From the IMG/VR virus record IMGVR_UViG_2778261252_000011: 42,392 nucleotides of DNA. One strand, 5' to 3'. This stretch comes from a virus (lineage: Duplodnaviria > Heunggongvirae > Uroviricota > Caudoviricetes). The notes beneath the pieces were generated by a model that worked only from the letters and a program-made list of their open reading frames with translations, ran no database searches and was not told where the DNA came from. Shown here piece by piece: positions 2,795 to 16,047 of the stretch (its first letter is position 1; every line of letters begins with the position of its first letter). Position numbers and translations under genes: made by a program.

Positions 2795-5387
2795 TTGCAT
2801 ATTCCTTAGCCCAGCGGGGCAGTGATAATGTCTTAATAGCTGGCCATTCATCGGTATTCAGGCAGTCAGACAGGGTTCGCAGATTGCGGTGATATTCCTG
2901 TTGACCTGCCAGTTTTGCTTCTTCGCCCATCATGAAAATTTCAACCGGATAACGTCCGCATTCAATAGTTGTGCTGGCAACCAGAAAAACGAAAGTTGGC
3001 TGCACTCCAAACTGTGCTTCATAACCGTCACTGTAGAATGCATCCTGAACGTGATAGCGGTAGTCGTAATAAGCGGTTTTGAATCGTTGAATATCCGCCG
3101 TAGTTTTCACGTCCATGATCCAGTGAAATTCAGGGATAATTTTGTCCGGACGGCACCGACACAAAATTCCTGTTTCAGGATCTTCCCAGTAAATTGATGA
3201 TTCAGCGTGTCCGGCGCTTTCAACAAGCCATTGCCCCAGCGGCAAAGCCATAACGCTTTGATACATGAGTTCAATTTTCCGGCCTTCTTCCGCAGTGATA
3301 ACCGTTTTTCCTGTGCTTGCGCATTCCATCAGAAACGCTTTCTCTTCTTCTTTTCCGGCGTTTGTACGGCGGTTAAATTCAGGTGCTACGATAAAGCGGT
3401 TACTGAATTCTTCCGGTTCAAGTACCCGGCAGTGGAAAGCAGTTCCTAAATCGAGCGTTTTTGTCTTTGTGGTGTCCACGGGGGCATTTTTACGCCACAA
3501 ATATAGTGCCGGAGTATCAGCAATGTCATCGAGCTGAGACTTACTGATACCGGGACCCGCGTGGTAATTCTCATTCGAAATTCCGTAATAAATACCTGGC
3601 TCTATGTCTTCTACGATTACGGGATCTGCGACTTCGCCAGTTTCATCACTGCAATCGTGATGCGGATCGCTGCCAGCATTCTCATTGTGCGGATGTTCAG
3701 CGCCTTCCATTTCCTCCGGATCATTTTCCTTAGCTTCAACCTGACTCTCTTCATCGAATGTTTCCTGGTATGTTGCGTCGCCCATCACCGCACCACAGTC
3801 AGGGCAGTTATCCCCGCCAGTCTGGCCGCAGGCATTGCAGGCTATTTCCGGTTCCTGTTGCACTACTGGCTCAGGTTGATTCATATCTGGGCTGGTTTTT
3901 TCCGTTTCTGGCTGGTTCTGGTACACACAATCGCGAGTCTGGATCCCCTTTACCCATTTCGGATCGTTCGGGTCGCTAATTCCGTCAACAAATTCACCAC
4001 GTGATGCAGCAAGCAATTTATCGGCATCGACAGGATTTTTTGATGGAATGTTTTTCCGGGCTTCATGGAGTTCTGCCCGCAGTTCCTGATATTTCGCATC
4101 AACAGAATTTACCTGTGACTGAGCATCCAGCGGCTGCGTGTCCTGATGATGTTCAGTTGCGTCCGGTTCCATTGTTTCAGCCTCTCCCTGTTCAACTGCC
4201 GTTGTTCCAGATGGTTGCGGTTTTTCTTCATCATCCTGTTTTCCTTCTTCTGTTACTCGCTGCGGCATCGGGGCAGAGGAGCGACCGCAGGCAATATCCA
4301 CGATTTCCGGATCAGGGTTGGCATGATCGGTTTCAGTCAGTACTTTGTTCAGATATTCAGTGACGTGCGCGGGGATGACCTCGATCCCAATTGGTGCTTC
4401 TTTTACGGACGCAACCACGATGGCGCGGGAATAATCCAGCCCGCCAGGCATGGTGATGAATTTGTCGCGGAAAACAGAAAAGGGCGGTTTATTTTCAGCG
4501 ATAATTTCCTCAATGCGTTTAGCGTGTGCCGGATGAAGGTTATAGATGTCCAGATCCATTGAACGGGCCAGTACGCCAGTGGCTACGTCGCGCGCCAGTG
4601 ACGTCAGATCGTGTACGAAACCTTCGCCGCGATCGGTGAGGTTTCCGCCGCCAGCATTAGCACCGGAAGCCGTGCGAGTGATGTGTGAAACACGATTACC
4701 CTTCATCCACTCTTTTGTCAGCAGTCCTCGATCGGTGTAGTCAGCGTTCAGGTATGCTTCGAAAAAAGCAGTTATCAGTCCCAGGTTTGAATTACCAGGA
4801 TTAGGGAAAACTTTGTCAGTGTCACGAACCAGTTTGTGGAGTTCGCGAATTTCCAGCGGGTCGAGCAGGCTGGTTTTGTGGGAAACAGCCAGGGCAGTAA
4901 CAGCCGGTAGTTCTTCAGCCCGAGCAATGTGTAATGCCTGGAGTCCGTCGCGTGAAACGTGCGTTACCGGTTTTTCGCTGCCGTGTTGAGCAAGCCAACG
5001 AATGGGCAGTTCCTGGCCAGAAATTGGGAGTAGCATATTCTCCTCAATCTCAGTCATGTCTTCGCCGTTGACGTTGGTATTGCCTTGATAATGAGCGTTG
5101 TCTGGTGCTGCTCCCGGTTTTAGTTCCCATGTCATGGAGTCTTTGCTGAGTTGATAGCGTTCACTCCAGGTAAAATCGATCTCACCTTCAGCGGGCAGGT
5201 CATTAACGACAGGAAAATTCGTGGCAACAGCTTTAAAATAGCTGCTCAGTTTTTTACCTGACTTAACGATCAGGTAGTCCAGAGTGGCACAGGTCGATTC
5301 AAAATCGTTGCTTGCCCACAGGACGACGTCAGGTTCACCGGATGATTTTTTCGCTTTCCGTAACAGGAAGAGTGGTTTTGTGCTCAT
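2787..5387 (-). CDS. recE: RecE exodeoxyribonuclease VIII (866 aa)
   Basis: 866-aa ORF upstream of and overlapping recT; size and context match Rac recE. Many antisense ORFs lie inside it and are rejected. Confidence 0.9.
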
Positions 5388-6671: not shown

Positions 6672-7160
6672 ATGTTGGATGTATTTACTCCATTGTTGAA
6701 ACTTTTTGCTAACGAGCCACTCGAAAGACTTATGTATACGATTATCATTTTTGGTCTCACTCTCTGGCTGATACCGAAAGAGTTTACTGCCGCATTCAAT
6801 GCTTATACTGAAATACCTTGGCTCTTTCAGATTATCGTTTTTGCCTTTTCTTTCGTGGTCGCCATTTCCTTCTCAAGATTGCGAGCACATATTCAAAAGC
6901 ATTATTCATTACTACCAGAGCAACGAGTATTGCTTCGTTTATCTGAGAAAGAAATCGCTGTATTTAAAGATTTCCTTAAAACAGGAAATCTTATTATCAC
7001 TTCTCCTTGCCGTAACCCGGTTATGAAAAAATTAGAACGGAAGGGCATCATTCAACATCAGAGTGATAGCGCAAACTGTTCTTATTATCTCGTCACCGAA
7101 AAATACTCCCATTTTATGAAGTTATTCTGGAACAGCAGGAGTAGACGTTTTAATCGTTAG
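6672..7160 (+). CDS. sieB: SieB superinfection-exclusion protein (162 aa, membrane)
   Basis: Translation MLDVFTPLLKLFANEPLERLMYTIIIFGLTLWLIPKEF...; internal Met of the 203-aa ORF; hydrophobic N-terminal segments. Confidence 0.85.
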   Translation: MLDVFTPLLKLFANEPLERLMYTIIIFGLTLWLIPKEFTAAFNAYTEIPWLFQIIVFAFSFVVAISFSRLRAHIQKHYSLLPEQRVLLRLSEKEIAVFKDFLKTGNLIITSPCRNPVMKKLERKGIIQHQSDSANCSYYLVTEKYSHFMKLFWNSRSRRFNR

Positions 7161-11948: not shown

Positions 11949-12110
11949 GCCAAATTAACAATCAGGGAACTGCGTGAACTGAAAGAGAAATCATAATCCA
12001 AATCTGAATAATTAAATTTAGCACTGTAAATAAAATTTAATCCTTAACCGGAGGGGGGGGGCTGCACCCTCAAAATATTAGGAGGCGGCCCGAAAGGGCG
12101 GTAATGAAAA

Positions 12111-12614
12111 ATGACTGAATTAACCAAAAAGCAATTAATCGAAGAAGCTAAATTAAAAATAGCGATTGAGAAATGCCACCCCAATTCAGGGATGGCACGG
12201 GTAGAGGGCGAATTATTCAAAATTGCTCTGGCATCGCTGGAAGCAGAGCCAGTTGGTGATTTTTATGAATACAAACCGGATGACTGGTATCAGCGTTCGG
12301 CTGGAGATAAAGCGCCAAAATGGACGCCACCCTATGCCGTTTTTCCAGCGCCCGTAGTGCCGGAAGAAATGGATTTGCTTACATGCCATCTCGATGGTGT
12401 AACTGAAACATATGCTGAGGGATGGAACGCTTGCCGCGCTGCCCTGCTTCAGGGCAAAGGGGAGCCCGGGAAACAAGTTCGCGAATTGACAATGCTGGTT
12501 AAACAATTGGTTAGTCAACTGAAGAAAGCGAAACCGGGCTGCAAATTGCCGGATAAAGTGATGGACTACCTGGAGCGAAGCGGACTTATAAGCGTGGAGG
12601 ATGTTTTACGATGA
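12111..12614 (+). CDS. Hypothetical protein (167 aa)
   Basis: ORF MTELTKKQLIEEAKLK...; preceded by a G9 tract and a small GAAA hairpin; no family recognised. Confidence 0.55.
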   Translation: MTELTKKQLIEEAKLKIAIEKCHPNSGMARVEGELFKIALASLEAEPVGDFYEYKPDDWYQRSAGDKAPKWTPPYAVFPAPVVPEEMDLLTCHLDGVTETYAEGWNACRAALLQGKGEPGKQVRELTMLVKQLVSQLKKAKPGCKLPDKVMDYLERSGLISVEDVLR

Positions 12615-12694
12615 CCTGGCCTGAAGCATTCACAACGGTAGGAATTGCGATGGCGGTGGCGCTGGTGGTGTATTCGATTTGCCGCTGGGGTTGA
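12611..12694 (+). CDS. Putative 27-aa hydrophobic micropeptide, translationally coupled (ATGA overlap) to the upstream gene
   Basis: Hand translation MTWPEAFTTVGIAMAVALVVYSICRWG; single predicted transmembrane helix; followed by a terminator hairpin. Confidence 0.3.
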   Translation: MTWPEAFTTVGIAMAVALVVYSICRWG

Positions 12695-12704
12695 TAATAC
12701 TAAA

Positions 12705-12728
12705 TAACCAGCCCTTATGGGGCTGGCT
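12705..12728. terminator. Bidirectional terminator-like hairpin between convergent genes
   Basis: Stem CCAGCCC / GGGCTGG with a 5-nt loop; T-rich flank on the minus strand. Confidence 0.45.
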
Positions 12729-12734
12729 AATCAT

Positions 12735-13508
12735 TTAGAACTGTTCATTGCCATCGAGGTTAGGTAGCATAATTTTTTCAATCAAGGCGAGAGCCTTTTT
12801 GTCCCGGTCAGCGAAGTATTTCGGGGCATATTGCGGCAACCAAATATTGTTAAAATGTTCTTTGAAATCTGCTAAATATTCATTTGGGTACAGCCTTGCA
12901 GGGTATACGCGACCATCGGGATATTCATGGTCATAGGTAGGGAATGTTTTGGGTTCTACGTTTCTATTATCTCTTAACCATTGTGAAAATACTCTTCCTT
13001 GTGAAATGTCAGGAACCATTTTTTCTGGGAGTGTGTACCCTGCTTGTTCAAGAGGTGCAACCAAGTTGAATGTCAGTTCATTAAGAATAGAAAAGTGCGT
13101 GTGAGGAATTCTACTACGATTAACCATGTACCGTTTTAAATGTACAGGCATTTCTGCTGTAGTTCTTTCCCCTGACATCCATTCACGAACCCATCTTGAA
13201 ACCTGGACTGCAAATTTGGGCGATAGCCACTGCGCTAGATTAATAGCGATGTCAGGATGCACCCATGTCCCTTGGTTTTCAGGTCTTCCACCTTTAAATG
13301 ATTGAATTAACTCCGATATGGGAATTCCCATATCGCGTGATAATTCGTCAAAAAACTCTTGAGTAGTTTTGAGTCTAGTGTAATCAGAGAGCAGTTTGCC
13401 CGCAGTTCTACACATTGATGTGGCGTTTATGTAACCATCTTTGGCACGTAAATGTATTATTTCGCCGTCAATTTCACGAGAAATCAAAGATAATTGAAAG
13501 GATGTCAT
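12735..13508 (-). CDS. KilA-N domain protein (257 aa), opposite-strand moron
   Basis: N-terminal segment IHLRAKDGYINATSMCRTAGK... reads as a KilA-N/APSES-type domain; GAGGAA Shine-Dalgarno; transcribed against the flanking operons. Confidence 0.75.
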   Translation of the reverse strand: MTSFQLSLISREIDGEIIHLRAKDGYINATSMCRTAGKLLSDYTRLKTTQEFFDELSRDMGIPISELIQSFKGGRPENQGTWVHPDIAINLAQWLSPKFAVQVSRWVREWMSGERTTAEMPVHLKRYMVNRSRIPHTHFSILNELTFNLVAPLEQAGYTLPEKMVPDISQGRVFSQWLRDNRNVEPKTFPTYDHEYPDGRVYPARLYPNEYLADFKEHFNNIWLPQYAPKYFADRDKKALALIEKIMLPNLDGNEQF

Positions 13509-13827
13509 TGAAAATTCCTCAAGTTGGAGAGTTCTGGAACATTAAGGCGAGGTGGCAGTAATGCACCATCTGTAATCTTTTGATACTGACGTAATCGGGC
13601 CTGATGTGCAACGCCTTGCAAGTATGTAACTCATTGAAAACGATCATTTTTATCTATTGACATCAAATGGCAAACTGTCATTGTGCGGCTATGGCAAGTG
13701 GCAAATGCTTATAAATCATATGGATATAAATGGTACAGAAAGAGTTGTTTTCTCTAGGATATGAGTATACGCCCAATGCTGATTGGTTGAATTTTGTTCT
13801 TGTTTTAAAGGGTAAGAGTTTAAAGTG

Positions 13828-13856
13828 TTGGCAGTGATGTATTGGATAGTTAGAAT
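13828..13856 (+). promoter_or_regulatory. Sigma70-like promoter for the hok-like mRNA (-35 TTGGCA, 17-bp spacer, -10 TAGAAT)
   Basis: Hexamers read directly; predicted start falls at GGTGCTTGAGGCTATCTGCCTC, which resembles the hok mRNA 5' end as I recall it. Confidence 0.45.
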
Positions 13857-14030
13857 TGCTGTGGGTGCTTGAGGCTATCTGCCTCGGGCATGAACACCAA
13901 AGGTAGATAGAGAAAAGCCCCAGTTAACATTACGCGTCCTGCAAGACGTTTAACATTAATCTGAGGCCATATCTATGCGACACATAGAGATTAGCCTCTT
14001 ACGGACCGAAAGGTCAAGGAGAAGCAGGCT

Positions 14031-14156
14031 ATGAAGCAGCAAAAGGCGATGTTAATCGCCCTGATCGTCATCTGTTTAACCGTCATAGTGACGGCACTGG
14101 TAACGAGGAAATACCTCTGCGAGGTACGAATCCGAACTGGCAGACGGAGGCTCTGA
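14031..14156 (+). CDS. Hok/Gef-family type I toxin, C-terminally truncated or divergent (41 aa); possible frameshifted allele
   Basis: Translation MKQQKAMLIALIVICLTVIVTALVTRKYLCEVRIRTGRRRL; the family-typical C-terminal segment is absent; a 19-codon mok-like upstream ORF (13975-14034) overlaps the start. Confidence 0.6.
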   Translation: MKQQKAMLIALIVICLTVIVTALVTRKYLCEVRIRTGRRRL

Positions 14157-14238
14157 TTCGTAGACTACTAATCTGAGTAAAAGACCCAGCGGGGAAAGAA
14201 CCACGCCGGGACTAGTTAATAAGATATTTATAGCGTGG

Positions 14239-14580
14239 CTATTCTTTTTTTGCGGTATAGACTTTTTCGCCTGAGAAGTCTGGAGCTACCCAAAAGTTAA
14301 TATTAAACTGAGCATCATCGCTTAGTTCAACACGGTGCCAGTATTGTGGTGGGCTTGTTGCAAAAGCGCCAGCATTAATGACTACTTTTATCTCCGGTTC
14401 AGTAGCATTCTCATCAGCAAAACCATAATATGTTACAGTACCTTCCATCACGCATAACTGTCCAAAAACACCTGCTGCTGTATTATGATGTGTTAATAAC
14501 GCTGAAGGTACGTTCTCTTTTGTGAAGAACGGAGTTGAGCGTTTGATTACCCAGTCTTTAGGAATTCTCTTGTGTGTCAT
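14239..14580 (-). CDS. YeaR-like DUF1971 protein (113 aa)
   Basis: Translation MTHKRIPKDWVIKRSTPFFTKENVPSALL... resembles E. coli YeaR as I recall it; GGAGGTGG Shine-Dalgarno upstream of ATG 14580. Confidence 0.65.
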   Translation of the reverse strand: MTHKRIPKDWVIKRSTPFFTKENVPSALLTHHNTAAGVFGQLCVMEGTVTYYGFADENATEPEIKVVINAGAFATSPPQYWHRVELSDDAQFNINFWVAPDFSGEKVYTAKKE

Positions 14581-15447
14581 AACCACCTCCCATAAAACAT
14601 GCATTATAAATGCACCCTTTTGAGGGTTATGTCAAACTGTTATGAAACACATAATTGATATGTTGATTAGAGGAGAAGATAGAATCAATATGGTTGTTTT
14701 TCGTATAACTATTTGTTTTACTTTTAGTTTGTGCATTCTGTGTGTTAGGAATAACTTATTAAAGTTTAACTAAAAAATCTCGATATAGTCCGCATAGATT
14801 ACTGTTACTGAATCTTATTGTGTGCATTAGTTGTGTTCTGAAATTTCAATTTAATTACTTATGATATATTTTTAACGATAAATGTTTTCCGGGTGAAAGA
14901 CAGTGGGGGATGAGATAAGCAATATATCATTAATCTTGATTATTTCCAGGATGCCTTTACTGTGCATATAAATAAATCATATACGCATCAAATAATGTAA
15001 AGGCATCCTTTTAGATATATCTTATCAAATGTTAATGATTTGAGTGGGAAACATGATTCCAGAAACTAATCATGCGGCTACTTTATAAAAATAATGCCCA
15101 TATAAAACAGCCAGCGAAAAGGATTACGGATAAAAAAGGAGCGAGATGTGCATAGTTGTTATTTTCCATGTTTAACCACCTTAAATAATTGATGATGACG
15201 GGATGTGCATCTGTAATGCTTTTGTTGAAATGTTATGATAAAAAAGAACTTTTTCATAACATTAAAATGTAATTTATCTAATCGTTTTTAATAATAAGTG
15301 TTGTATTTCTATCCTTGTATCAGCTATTTGATATGTAGTGTTTGTTCATGTTATGTGGAGCTTTACACCATAGCCAGTTTATTTATACTTTATTCGTCAG
15401 CCTGAACAACTGGCATCTGCTGCACTGCGCCATCGAGAGATTGAGAA

Positions 15448-16047
15448 ATGGCGCATATACAACTGGTCAAACAAACCTCTTCTGGACTACTTCTCCCGGC
15501 GACGCCGGAGAGTTGCGATTTTTTGCATCAAATCAAAATAGGCGAGTGGATACACGCAGACTTTAAGCGTGTGCGTAACTACGCATTCCACAAGCGTTTT
15601 TTCAAACTCCTGCAACTGGGATTCGATTACTGGACTCCGGTCGGTGGGGCGATCACGCCTCGCGAACGAAAGCTGGTTTCAGGATTCGTTGATTACCTAT
15701 GTGAATCAGTAGGCCGGGAACATACGCCAGCTCTGAGCGAAGCCGCAGAGCAATATCTGAATACAGTTGCGACACGCAGAACCCGGGATACGGCATTGCT
15801 AAAGTCGTTTGAGGCTTTTCGCGAGTGGGTAACCATTCAGGCTGGATTTTACACCGAACATTTTTATCCGGACGGTAGCCGCGGGCGTCGGGCAAAATCT
15901 ATCGCTTTTGCGAATATGGACGAAACCGAGTTTCAGCAGGTTTATAAATCTGTTCTGAATGTGCTGTGGAACTGGATTCTGTTCCGTAAATTTTCCTCTC
16001 CGGAACAAGTCGAAAATGTGGCCGCGCAGCTGCTGGAGTTTGCGTAA
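15448..16047 (+). CDS. Nin-region phage protein (199 aa), possibly DUF1367-like
   Basis: First gene after the AT-rich island, directly upstream of the YbcO-like gene; family name is tentative. Confidence 0.55.
   Translation: MAHIQLVKQTSSGLLLPATPESCDFLHQIKIGEWIHADFKRVRNYAFHKRFFKLLQLGFDYWTPVGGAITPRERKLVSGFVDYLCESVGREHTPALSEAAEQYLNTVATRRTRDTALLKSFEAFREWVTIQAGFYTEHFYPDGSRGRRAKSIAFANMDETEFQQVYKSVLNVLWNWILFRKFSSPEQVENVAAQLLEFA

Follow-up and report, generated by a model that had tools for sequence, protein, structure and literature searches.

A KilA-N gene with a BstA-like C-terminal domain and an internal covarying palindrome in a Rac-like lambdoid prophage

The window analyzed here, the whole stretch of 42,392 nucleotides of viral DNA, is a lambdoid prophage of Rac-like type, and Escherichia phages vB_EcoS-613R10, 666R9 and 673R7 are almost identical to it. 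Its genes follow the order integrase, RecT/RecE, kil, sieB, cI/cro/cII, O, DnaC-like, DUF977, cassette region, NinB, Q, lysis and terminase. The cassette region contains an intact 257-aa ORF on the minus strand (12735..13508), with its ATG start at the 13508 end. A Shine-Dalgarno sequence, GAGGA, was read at 13516..13520 on the same strand, 7 nt 5' of the ATG, so that both the ORF and its own ribosome-binding site are as described in an earlier note on this DNA. Five nucleotides past the stop codon begins an intrinsic-terminator-like hairpin (12705..12729, minus strand, also listed as inverted repeat I11), formed by 10 pairs, 6 of them G-C, with a loop of 5 and the tail TTTAGTATTA. It had been called a bidirectional terminator; the scan calls it on the minus strand only, and as the plus-strand tail is not T-rich, a bidirectional function is not supported.

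Upstream of the gene, only one sigma-70-like site was found on the minus strand (13673->13646), with no enrichment over shuffles. This weak promoter candidate, TTGCCA-16-AAAAAT (13646..13673, 9/12 match), lies amid the TGGCAA repeats D6 and D3. Motifs of the form TGGCAA(A) occur three times in the upstream DNA (13664-13674, 13695-13705), together with a 15-nt sequence repeated in tandem, CAAATGCTTATAAAT / CATATGGATATAAAT, at 13702-13731; these elements overlap the sole minus-strand promoter-like site and may be operator-like. A 38-aa ORF with a TTG start (13505-13621, minus strand) ends in an ATGA that overlaps the KilA-N start codon. One phage record lists it as hypothetical; it gave no family match and is probably not a gene.

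Together with its terminator and some 340 bp of upstream DNA of its own (13509-13848), the gene makes up a moron cassette at 12695..13848 (minus strand), delimited by its low GC and by an indel relative to phage vB_EcoS-689R5. In the alignment, homology to that phage (L089) ends at about 12691 and restarts at about 13848-13851, with about 30 bp between the two points in 689R5. The cassette of about 1.15 kb is thus a clean indel, with a 27-aa membrane-protein ORF on one side and hok/sok on the other, and its GC content is 0.40 versus 0.50 in the flanking early genes, in agreement with the earlier proposal of a moron. The 27-aa hydrophobic ORF, MTWPEAFTTVGIAMAVALVVYSICRWG, at 12611-12694 (plus strand) has an ATGA overlap with the stop of the preceding 167-aa gene and is conserved in related prophages, where it borders the cassette slot on the left. 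The distance from the KilA-N gene to the next ORF, described previously as a 730-bp regulatory gap, does measure 730 bp (13509-14238), but only about 340 bp of it are cassette DNA, the remainder being a complete divergent hok/sok locus, in which Rfam places sok at 13863-14033 (101 bits) and the Hok/Gef ORF spans 14031-14156 (plus strand).

Two observations concern the DNA beyond the cassette. The hok ORF encodes 41 aa rather than about 50: compared with phage 689R5, a 1-nt deletion (CGG-CAGACGG) shifts the frame and truncates the C-terminus, and a D->Y change is also present (RKYLCEV). The sok/hok-leader RNA region is intact according to Rfam (101 bits). Judging from its sequence, the Hok toxin of the window may be inactive. 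Moreover, the KilA-N gene is not the sole long gene oriented against the operons, as had been claimed, because a DUF1971 gene of 121 aa (14239-14604, minus strand; E=3.5e-26) forms a second minus-strand moron-like gene. YeaR and the N-terminal domain of TehB have the DUF1971 fold. Between this gene and ninB, some 800 bp (14500-15300) have a GC content of 0.29-0.32 and contain short ORFs only.

The N-terminal part of the protein is a KilA-N (APSES-type) DNA-binding domain, as recognized earlier (Pfam E=4e-27, aa 14-112; 13173..13469, minus strand). The C-terminal part, in which the earlier note could name no motif, corresponds to the BstA-like C-terminal domain PF26567 (aa about 119-251; 12756..13154, minus strand), detected by PADLOC, by precomputed Pfam assignments and by hhalign. 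Nearly the whole protein (aa 1-254) is covered by PHROG 6287, whose annotation reads 'BstA abortive infection system, replication inhibitor' (E=2.7e-89); the PADLOC BstA model covers aa 119-238 (E=3e-21), and BLASTP against BstA-BTP1 gave E=3e-16. The link to BstA proposed earlier is therefore supported at the sequence level, PHROG 6287 over the full length, PADLOC, PF26567 and hhalign (98%) being in agreement. PHROG 129 ('transcriptional regulator') also matches the N-terminal domain, with E=9e-25. Full-length homology to a classical antirepressor, which the earlier note had held to be incompatible with a defence role, was not found: the ANT/KilAC domain (PF03374) is absent, the Pfam scan at E<=1 returning KilA-N and one sub-threshold RHH_3. 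Lacking an ANT domain, the window protein is not a classical antirepressor.

The NCBIfam scan of the protein gave no match, the sequence-profile search of the PDB recovered Mbp1 alone, for the N-terminal domain, and the fold comparison of BstA_C revealed no structural relative pointing to a biochemical activity. The AlphaFold2 (AF2) model, built from a 74-sequence alignment, has a pLDDT of 91.5 and predicts two domains with a linker between them, at aa about 112-121. A large-database search retrieved 2652 relatives, with KilA-N and PF26567 in all matches listed. The same search started from BstA-BTP1 retrieved proteins with PF26567 alone, under the UniRef name 'BstA-like C-terminal domain'.

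To position the protein within the BstA family, we used as comparison set BstA-BTP1 and the four E. coli homologues of Table S1 in Owen et al. 2021 (PMC8585504), five validated-type proteins that share 38-42% mutual identity over their full length. PHROG 6287 matches 5/5 of them and Pfam KilA-N 0/5. The window protein aligns with validated BstA through its C-terminal half alone, at 24-32% identity. Consistently, hhalign between 74 sequences of the window clade and 54 of the BstA clade gave a probability of 98% (E=3e-13) for the C-terminal domain, and the N-terminal halves of the two clades did not align, even profile to profile. The PADLOC BstA model scores 55-74 bits in the window clade, on the C-terminal half, versus 351-412 bits over the full length of the validated proteins. 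BstA in the strict sense (BTP1, Ec, Kp) comprises proteins about 40-48% identical to one another and requires full-length similarity to the validated proteins, which the window protein does not have. It belongs to BstA in the broad sense through its C-terminal domain, its N-terminal KilA-N domain and its occurrence as a stand-alone prophage moron. The restriction of the alignment to the C-terminal domain points to a sister clade within the broad BstA family. On these comparisons, the window protein represents a distinct clade, in which a canonical KilA-N domain is fused to BstA_C, and which probably corresponds to the 'C-terminal-only homologs' of Figure 2C in Owen et al. 2021 (PMC8585504). 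As to novelty, the PHROG annotation already indicates BstA; what differs is the N-terminal domain and the absence of a BTP1-type aba. Several polar residues are common to both clades (R126, N130, S140, E144, D167, S169, G171 and H194 in window numbering), and their conservation suggests that they mark a defined functional site.

The gene is carried by 117 of 5426 complete E. coli genomes and is labelled in RefSeq just as 'KilA-N domain-containing protein'. Its closest phage homologues, in PhiR5_2 (86% identity) and Proteus phage vB_BPM-V3 (81%), are located immediately 3' of cI and co-oriented with it. Among the 51 viral contigs of the 84-88% group with enough upstream sequence to judge, 31 have a detectable cI-like gene directly upstream. 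The window gene itself is not adjacent to the repressor, and the viral contigs with the identical allele all adjoin hok/sok (15/15). The validated-type BstA homologue of E. coli NCTC8623 is in the nin region too. Over 75 loci, and over 80 genome loci from many phyla, no conserved neighbour gene was found beyond lineage-specific synteny, an S24 repressor being directly upstream in merely 3 of the 75. The absence of a conserved partner gene argues for a single-gene system. Identities are 51-60% among homologues from Proteobacteria, Verrucomicrobiota, Bacteroidota, Planctomycetota, Nitrospirota, Armatimonadota and CPR (L009-L088) and 51-86% among the relatives of the sister clade overall, an unusually high conservation for a mobile defence gene. 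The window thus gives access to a large and highly conserved BstA sister clade that current defence annotations capture partially. In nine Stenotrophomonas species, a gene of the clade occupies one syntenic chromosomal locus adjoining aceK and has no palindrome of the kind described below.

The earlier note had raised the idea of an internal DNA element that suppresses self-targeting. In BTP1, the aba element spans 63 bp at the gene start, across the start codon, and contains CCCGCC direct repeats (PMC8585504). No BTP1-like 63-bp aba was found around the start codon of the window gene, where short repeats are at chance level; the sole direct repeat touching the start codon, TTTTCAATGA, occurs twice, 126 bp apart, as expected by chance. 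The search of the gene did reveal another candidate, a conserved and perfect 22-bp palindrome, CGATATGGGAATTCCCATATCG, at 13314..13335. It was detected by the repeat scan as a single copy in the window and lies within codons 58-65 (R-D-M-G-I-P-I-S), in a loop of the KilA-N domain.

Several analyses indicate that selection on the nucleotide sequence maintains this palindrome. Over eight genes sharing 69-86% protein identity, synonymous-site identity peaks exactly at the palindrome (0.84 versus 0.49 overall). At the same site, 43 of 82 clade genes keep at least 9 of the 11 Watson-Crick pairs, 19 of them being perfect, with 27 variants in total; about half of the clade has no internal palindrome. 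The changes are compensatory, and the encoded amino acids are altered in step across phyla. For instance, the amino acids DM..IS are encoded with the core ATATGGGAATTCCCATAT, ET..VS with AAACGGGAATTCCCGTTT, DI..IS with ATATCGGAATTCCGATAT, DA..AS with ATGCCGGAATTCCGGCAT, DV..TS with ATGTCGGAATTCCGACAT and SA..AD with TCTGCGGGAATTCCCGCAGA. The number of pairs is 10.3 out of 11, versus 7.3 out of 11 after synonymous codons were re-drawn. On 79 distinct sequences, 68% of the cells are paired at the palindrome versus 25-42% for slid partners. The covariation score reaches 0.295 versus 0.147 in shuffles (0/500), and double-change cells number 124 versus 54.5 in shuffles. Such compensatory substitutions across phyla imply selection for the palindrome and not decay. 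The palindrome is certainly under nucleotide-level selection.

As single-stranded DNA, the palindrome is predicted to fold at -11.1 kcal/mol (z=-4.06). The mismatch spectrum is compatible with selection on either RNA or DNA, G-T mismatches being mostly at central loop positions. The Rfam scan of 12000-15600 returned sok and two chance-level matches, and nothing at 13314-13335. A related palindrome was found 8-15 nt past the stop codon in at least 3 of 40 genome loci that have no internal copy, namely TCGATATCGTTTAAACGATATCGA in L019, TTTCGATATCGTGATCACGATATCGAAA in L037 and ACCGATGCCGAGATACCGGCATCGGT in L087. The palindromes share a common design of two half-sites of 8-9 nt around an AT-rich centre of 4-6 nt. 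No comparable palindrome was detected in the validated BstA genes of BTP1 or in the Ec-like gene. Separately, in the validated-type BstA homologues of E. coli O103:H2 12009 and NCTC8623, the loci L007 (gene positions about 541-558) and L008 (gene positions about 536-557) show the palindromes TTCATTGTATTCAATGAA and ATTTCATTATATTTAATGAAAT at the same place in the gene, possibly sharing the form TTCATT..AATGAA.

The palindrome is also present outside the BstA-type genes. Viral contigs were scanned for CGNNNNGGGAATTCCCNNNNCG, which gave at least 120 matches. All four N-pairs were complementary in 83 of the 120 matches listed, when chance predicts 0.4%. Among the matches listed, 10 lie in genes combining KilA-N and BstA_C and 16 in KilA-N genes without BstA_C. 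Pfam, applied to 7 of these 16, assigned three to KilA-N+ANT and three to KilA-N without a recognized C-terminal domain, and found no match for one. A further gene with the palindrome (L173), missed by tblastn, is a KilA-N gene. A single-protein search for related loci retrieved mostly ANT-only relatives. The palindrome is therefore not specific to BstA_C proteins. In the family of L272, relatives at 80-85% identity have RQKCLTD or NRNILPF in place of TGIPATG and are devoid of the palindrome. These replacements show that the loop is permissive for the protein and that the conserved G-I-P follows from GGAATTCC. Independently of BstA, the data indicate that selection on the DNA (GGAATTCC) accounts, at least in part, for the G-I-P motif so widely conserved in KilA-N domains, which bears on the interpretation of the KilA-N domain family. 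As a side observation, two different palindrome variants lie 14 nt apart within a 414-aa ORF (L279:13856-13913).

Copies of the palindrome were also recovered outside KilA-N genes. Among the matches listed, 50 are exact copies of the E. coli variant that are solitary and intergenic, 41 of them in one context and 9 in unrelated contexts; examples of CGATATGGGAATTCCCATATCG are found at L174:2650-2671 and L370:~5040-5061. In the main context, the palindrome stands where a small membrane-protein gene meets hok (hokD) in lambdoid prophages, the very slot that the cassette occupies in the window. Taken over 101 nt, this context was recovered from 666 of the 5426 complete E. coli genomes (about 12%); the median is two copies per genome, and as many as five occur, for instance in O157:H7. 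It had no match in the GenBank phage collection and is absent from phage 933W. For just one of the 56 solitary perfect copies among the matches listed in viral contigs was a KilA-N gene found in the locus. The orphan copies of L206 and L174 keep 14-20 nt of weak gene-like flank. Another orphan has iteron-like GGCAACCAATGCGCGCA repeats in its flanks (L191:~6800-6950). The literature was searched for the palindrome sequence with no relevant result, and neither the covarying palindrome within the gene nor its orphan copies appear to have been described before.

Taking homology and context together, we consider it probable that the gene is a BstA-type single-gene abortive-infection moron of the prophage, in the broad sense of BstA. 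Homology and context were found directly, and the phenotype is carried over from BstA (PMC8585504). By this analogy, the BstA-like protein would be made in the lysogen and, upon infection by a foreign phage, would be drawn to the replicating phage DNA via its KilA-N domain; the BstA_C domain would then block phage DNA replication and no progeny would leave the infected cell, as in abortive infection (after PMC8585504). With less certainty, self-targeting would be prevented by a DNA element that the prophage carries at the locus, for which the 22-bp palindrome is the best candidate; it would be bound by the protein as cognate site and would act when amplified on the replicating prophage. The protein could instead serve the life cycle of the phage as a KilA-N transcription regulator, an antirepressor or a host-killing (Kil-type) protein, which we judge unlikely. 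Antirepressor-type and regulator proteins are the best-known carriers of KilA-N domains, and both the match of PHROG 129 to the N-terminal domain and the presence of the same internal palindrome in KilA-N+ANT genes would fit such a role. It is opposed by the C-terminal half, which is BstA_C and not ANT/KilAC, and by the position of close relatives in the lysogen-expressed slot 3' of cI. In addition, the moron is bounded by a terminator, is oriented against the early operon and is missing from otherwise collinear phages, and should hence be dispensable for lytic growth. The defence reading is thus the one we retain for the gene.

The role of the palindrome is less clear. It is a candidate cognate cis element, possibly comparable to aba. 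In its full form, which we regard as improbable, this proposal holds that KilA-N-type BstA proteins recognize the palindrome as their cognate site and are kept from self-targeting by it, so that it would equal aba in function while being a different element, and that the orphan copies are immunity-only decoys. If true, such decoys would enable rival or co-resident prophages to replicate in cells that carry the defence gene, and the proposal would cover the orphan copies in about 12% of E. coli genomes, in O157:H7-type lambdoid prophages and in the very slot of the cassette. Somewhat more credit, though still tentative, can be given to a general cis-element of KilA-N genes, either an autoregulatory operator bound by the KilA-N dimer or a hairpin limiting the expression of a toxic protein, with no specific tie to BstA-type self-immunity. 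Palindromes are indeed found in KilA-N genes with at least three different C-terminal domains, their loop tolerates replacement at the protein level (L272 relatives), and half-sites around an AT-rich centre are typical of operators of dimeric proteins. However, no KilA-N gene lies within about 7 kb of 55 of the 56 solitary perfect copies listed, nor of the copies in the 666 E. coli genomes, and regulation of the own gene alone does not explain hundreds of such orphans. For a hairpin, the 11-bp stem is also short compared with known RNA-processing sites such as RNase III substrates. We give least weight to the view of the palindrome as a hotspot of recombination or deletion, or as a relic, in which case the orphans would be remnants of decayed KilA-N cassettes at a module junction, with no function of their own. 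The location of an orphan in the exact backbone slot of the window cassette, between the small TM gene and hok, and the gene-like flanks of the L206 and L174 copies would be expected of remnants. Against this, the 22-mer is perfect even where its flanks are unrelated, in at least 9 contexts and 666 genomes, and within genes the substitutions are compensatory across phyla.

Whichever role applies, the palindrome offers a concrete mutable handle, since it can be destroyed synonymously and exists naturally as orphan copies. It bears on whether KilA-N/BstA proteins recognize a cognate site and on whether prophages trade such sites as immunity tokens. BstA belongs to a small number of defence systems in which self-immunity is encoded by a DNA element.

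Compared with BstA of BTP1, Ec and Kp, the window gene is likewise a prophage moron made of a single gene and assigned to PHROG 6287. Its PF26567 domain is homologous to that of BstA-BTP1, with 32% identity over window aa 125-251, the two-domain layout with an N-terminal DNA-binding domain is the same, and its nearest relatives lie directly downstream of cI, as does bstA in BTP1. It differs by its canonical Pfam KilA-N domain (E=4e-27), for which the validated proteins gave no Pfam match, by its length (257 aa versus about 300-310 aa) and by its position between the replication and nin modules, adjoining hok/sok. BstA in the strict sense also has in its locus a cognate aba DNA element that suppresses the protein when at high copy. 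The window gene has no BTP1-type aba and exhibits instead the internal 22-bp palindrome. Like aba, the palindrome is a short DNA element within the locus of a putative defence gene, and its variants differ among homologues, as expected of cognate pairs. Unlike aba, it is an inverted repeat instead of a set of direct repeats, it lies at codons 58-65 instead of the start codon, and it is found outside BstA-type genes too. The antirepressor-type proteins combining KilA-N and ANT/KilAC (PF03374; phage P1 KilA) share the KilA-N domain and, in some genes (L193, L194, L272), the same palindrome at the same G-I-P loop; the C-terminal domain of the window protein, however, is BstA_C and not ANT. Finally, the APSES domains of Mbp1 and Bqt4 belong to eukaryotic transcription or tethering factors without BstA_C.
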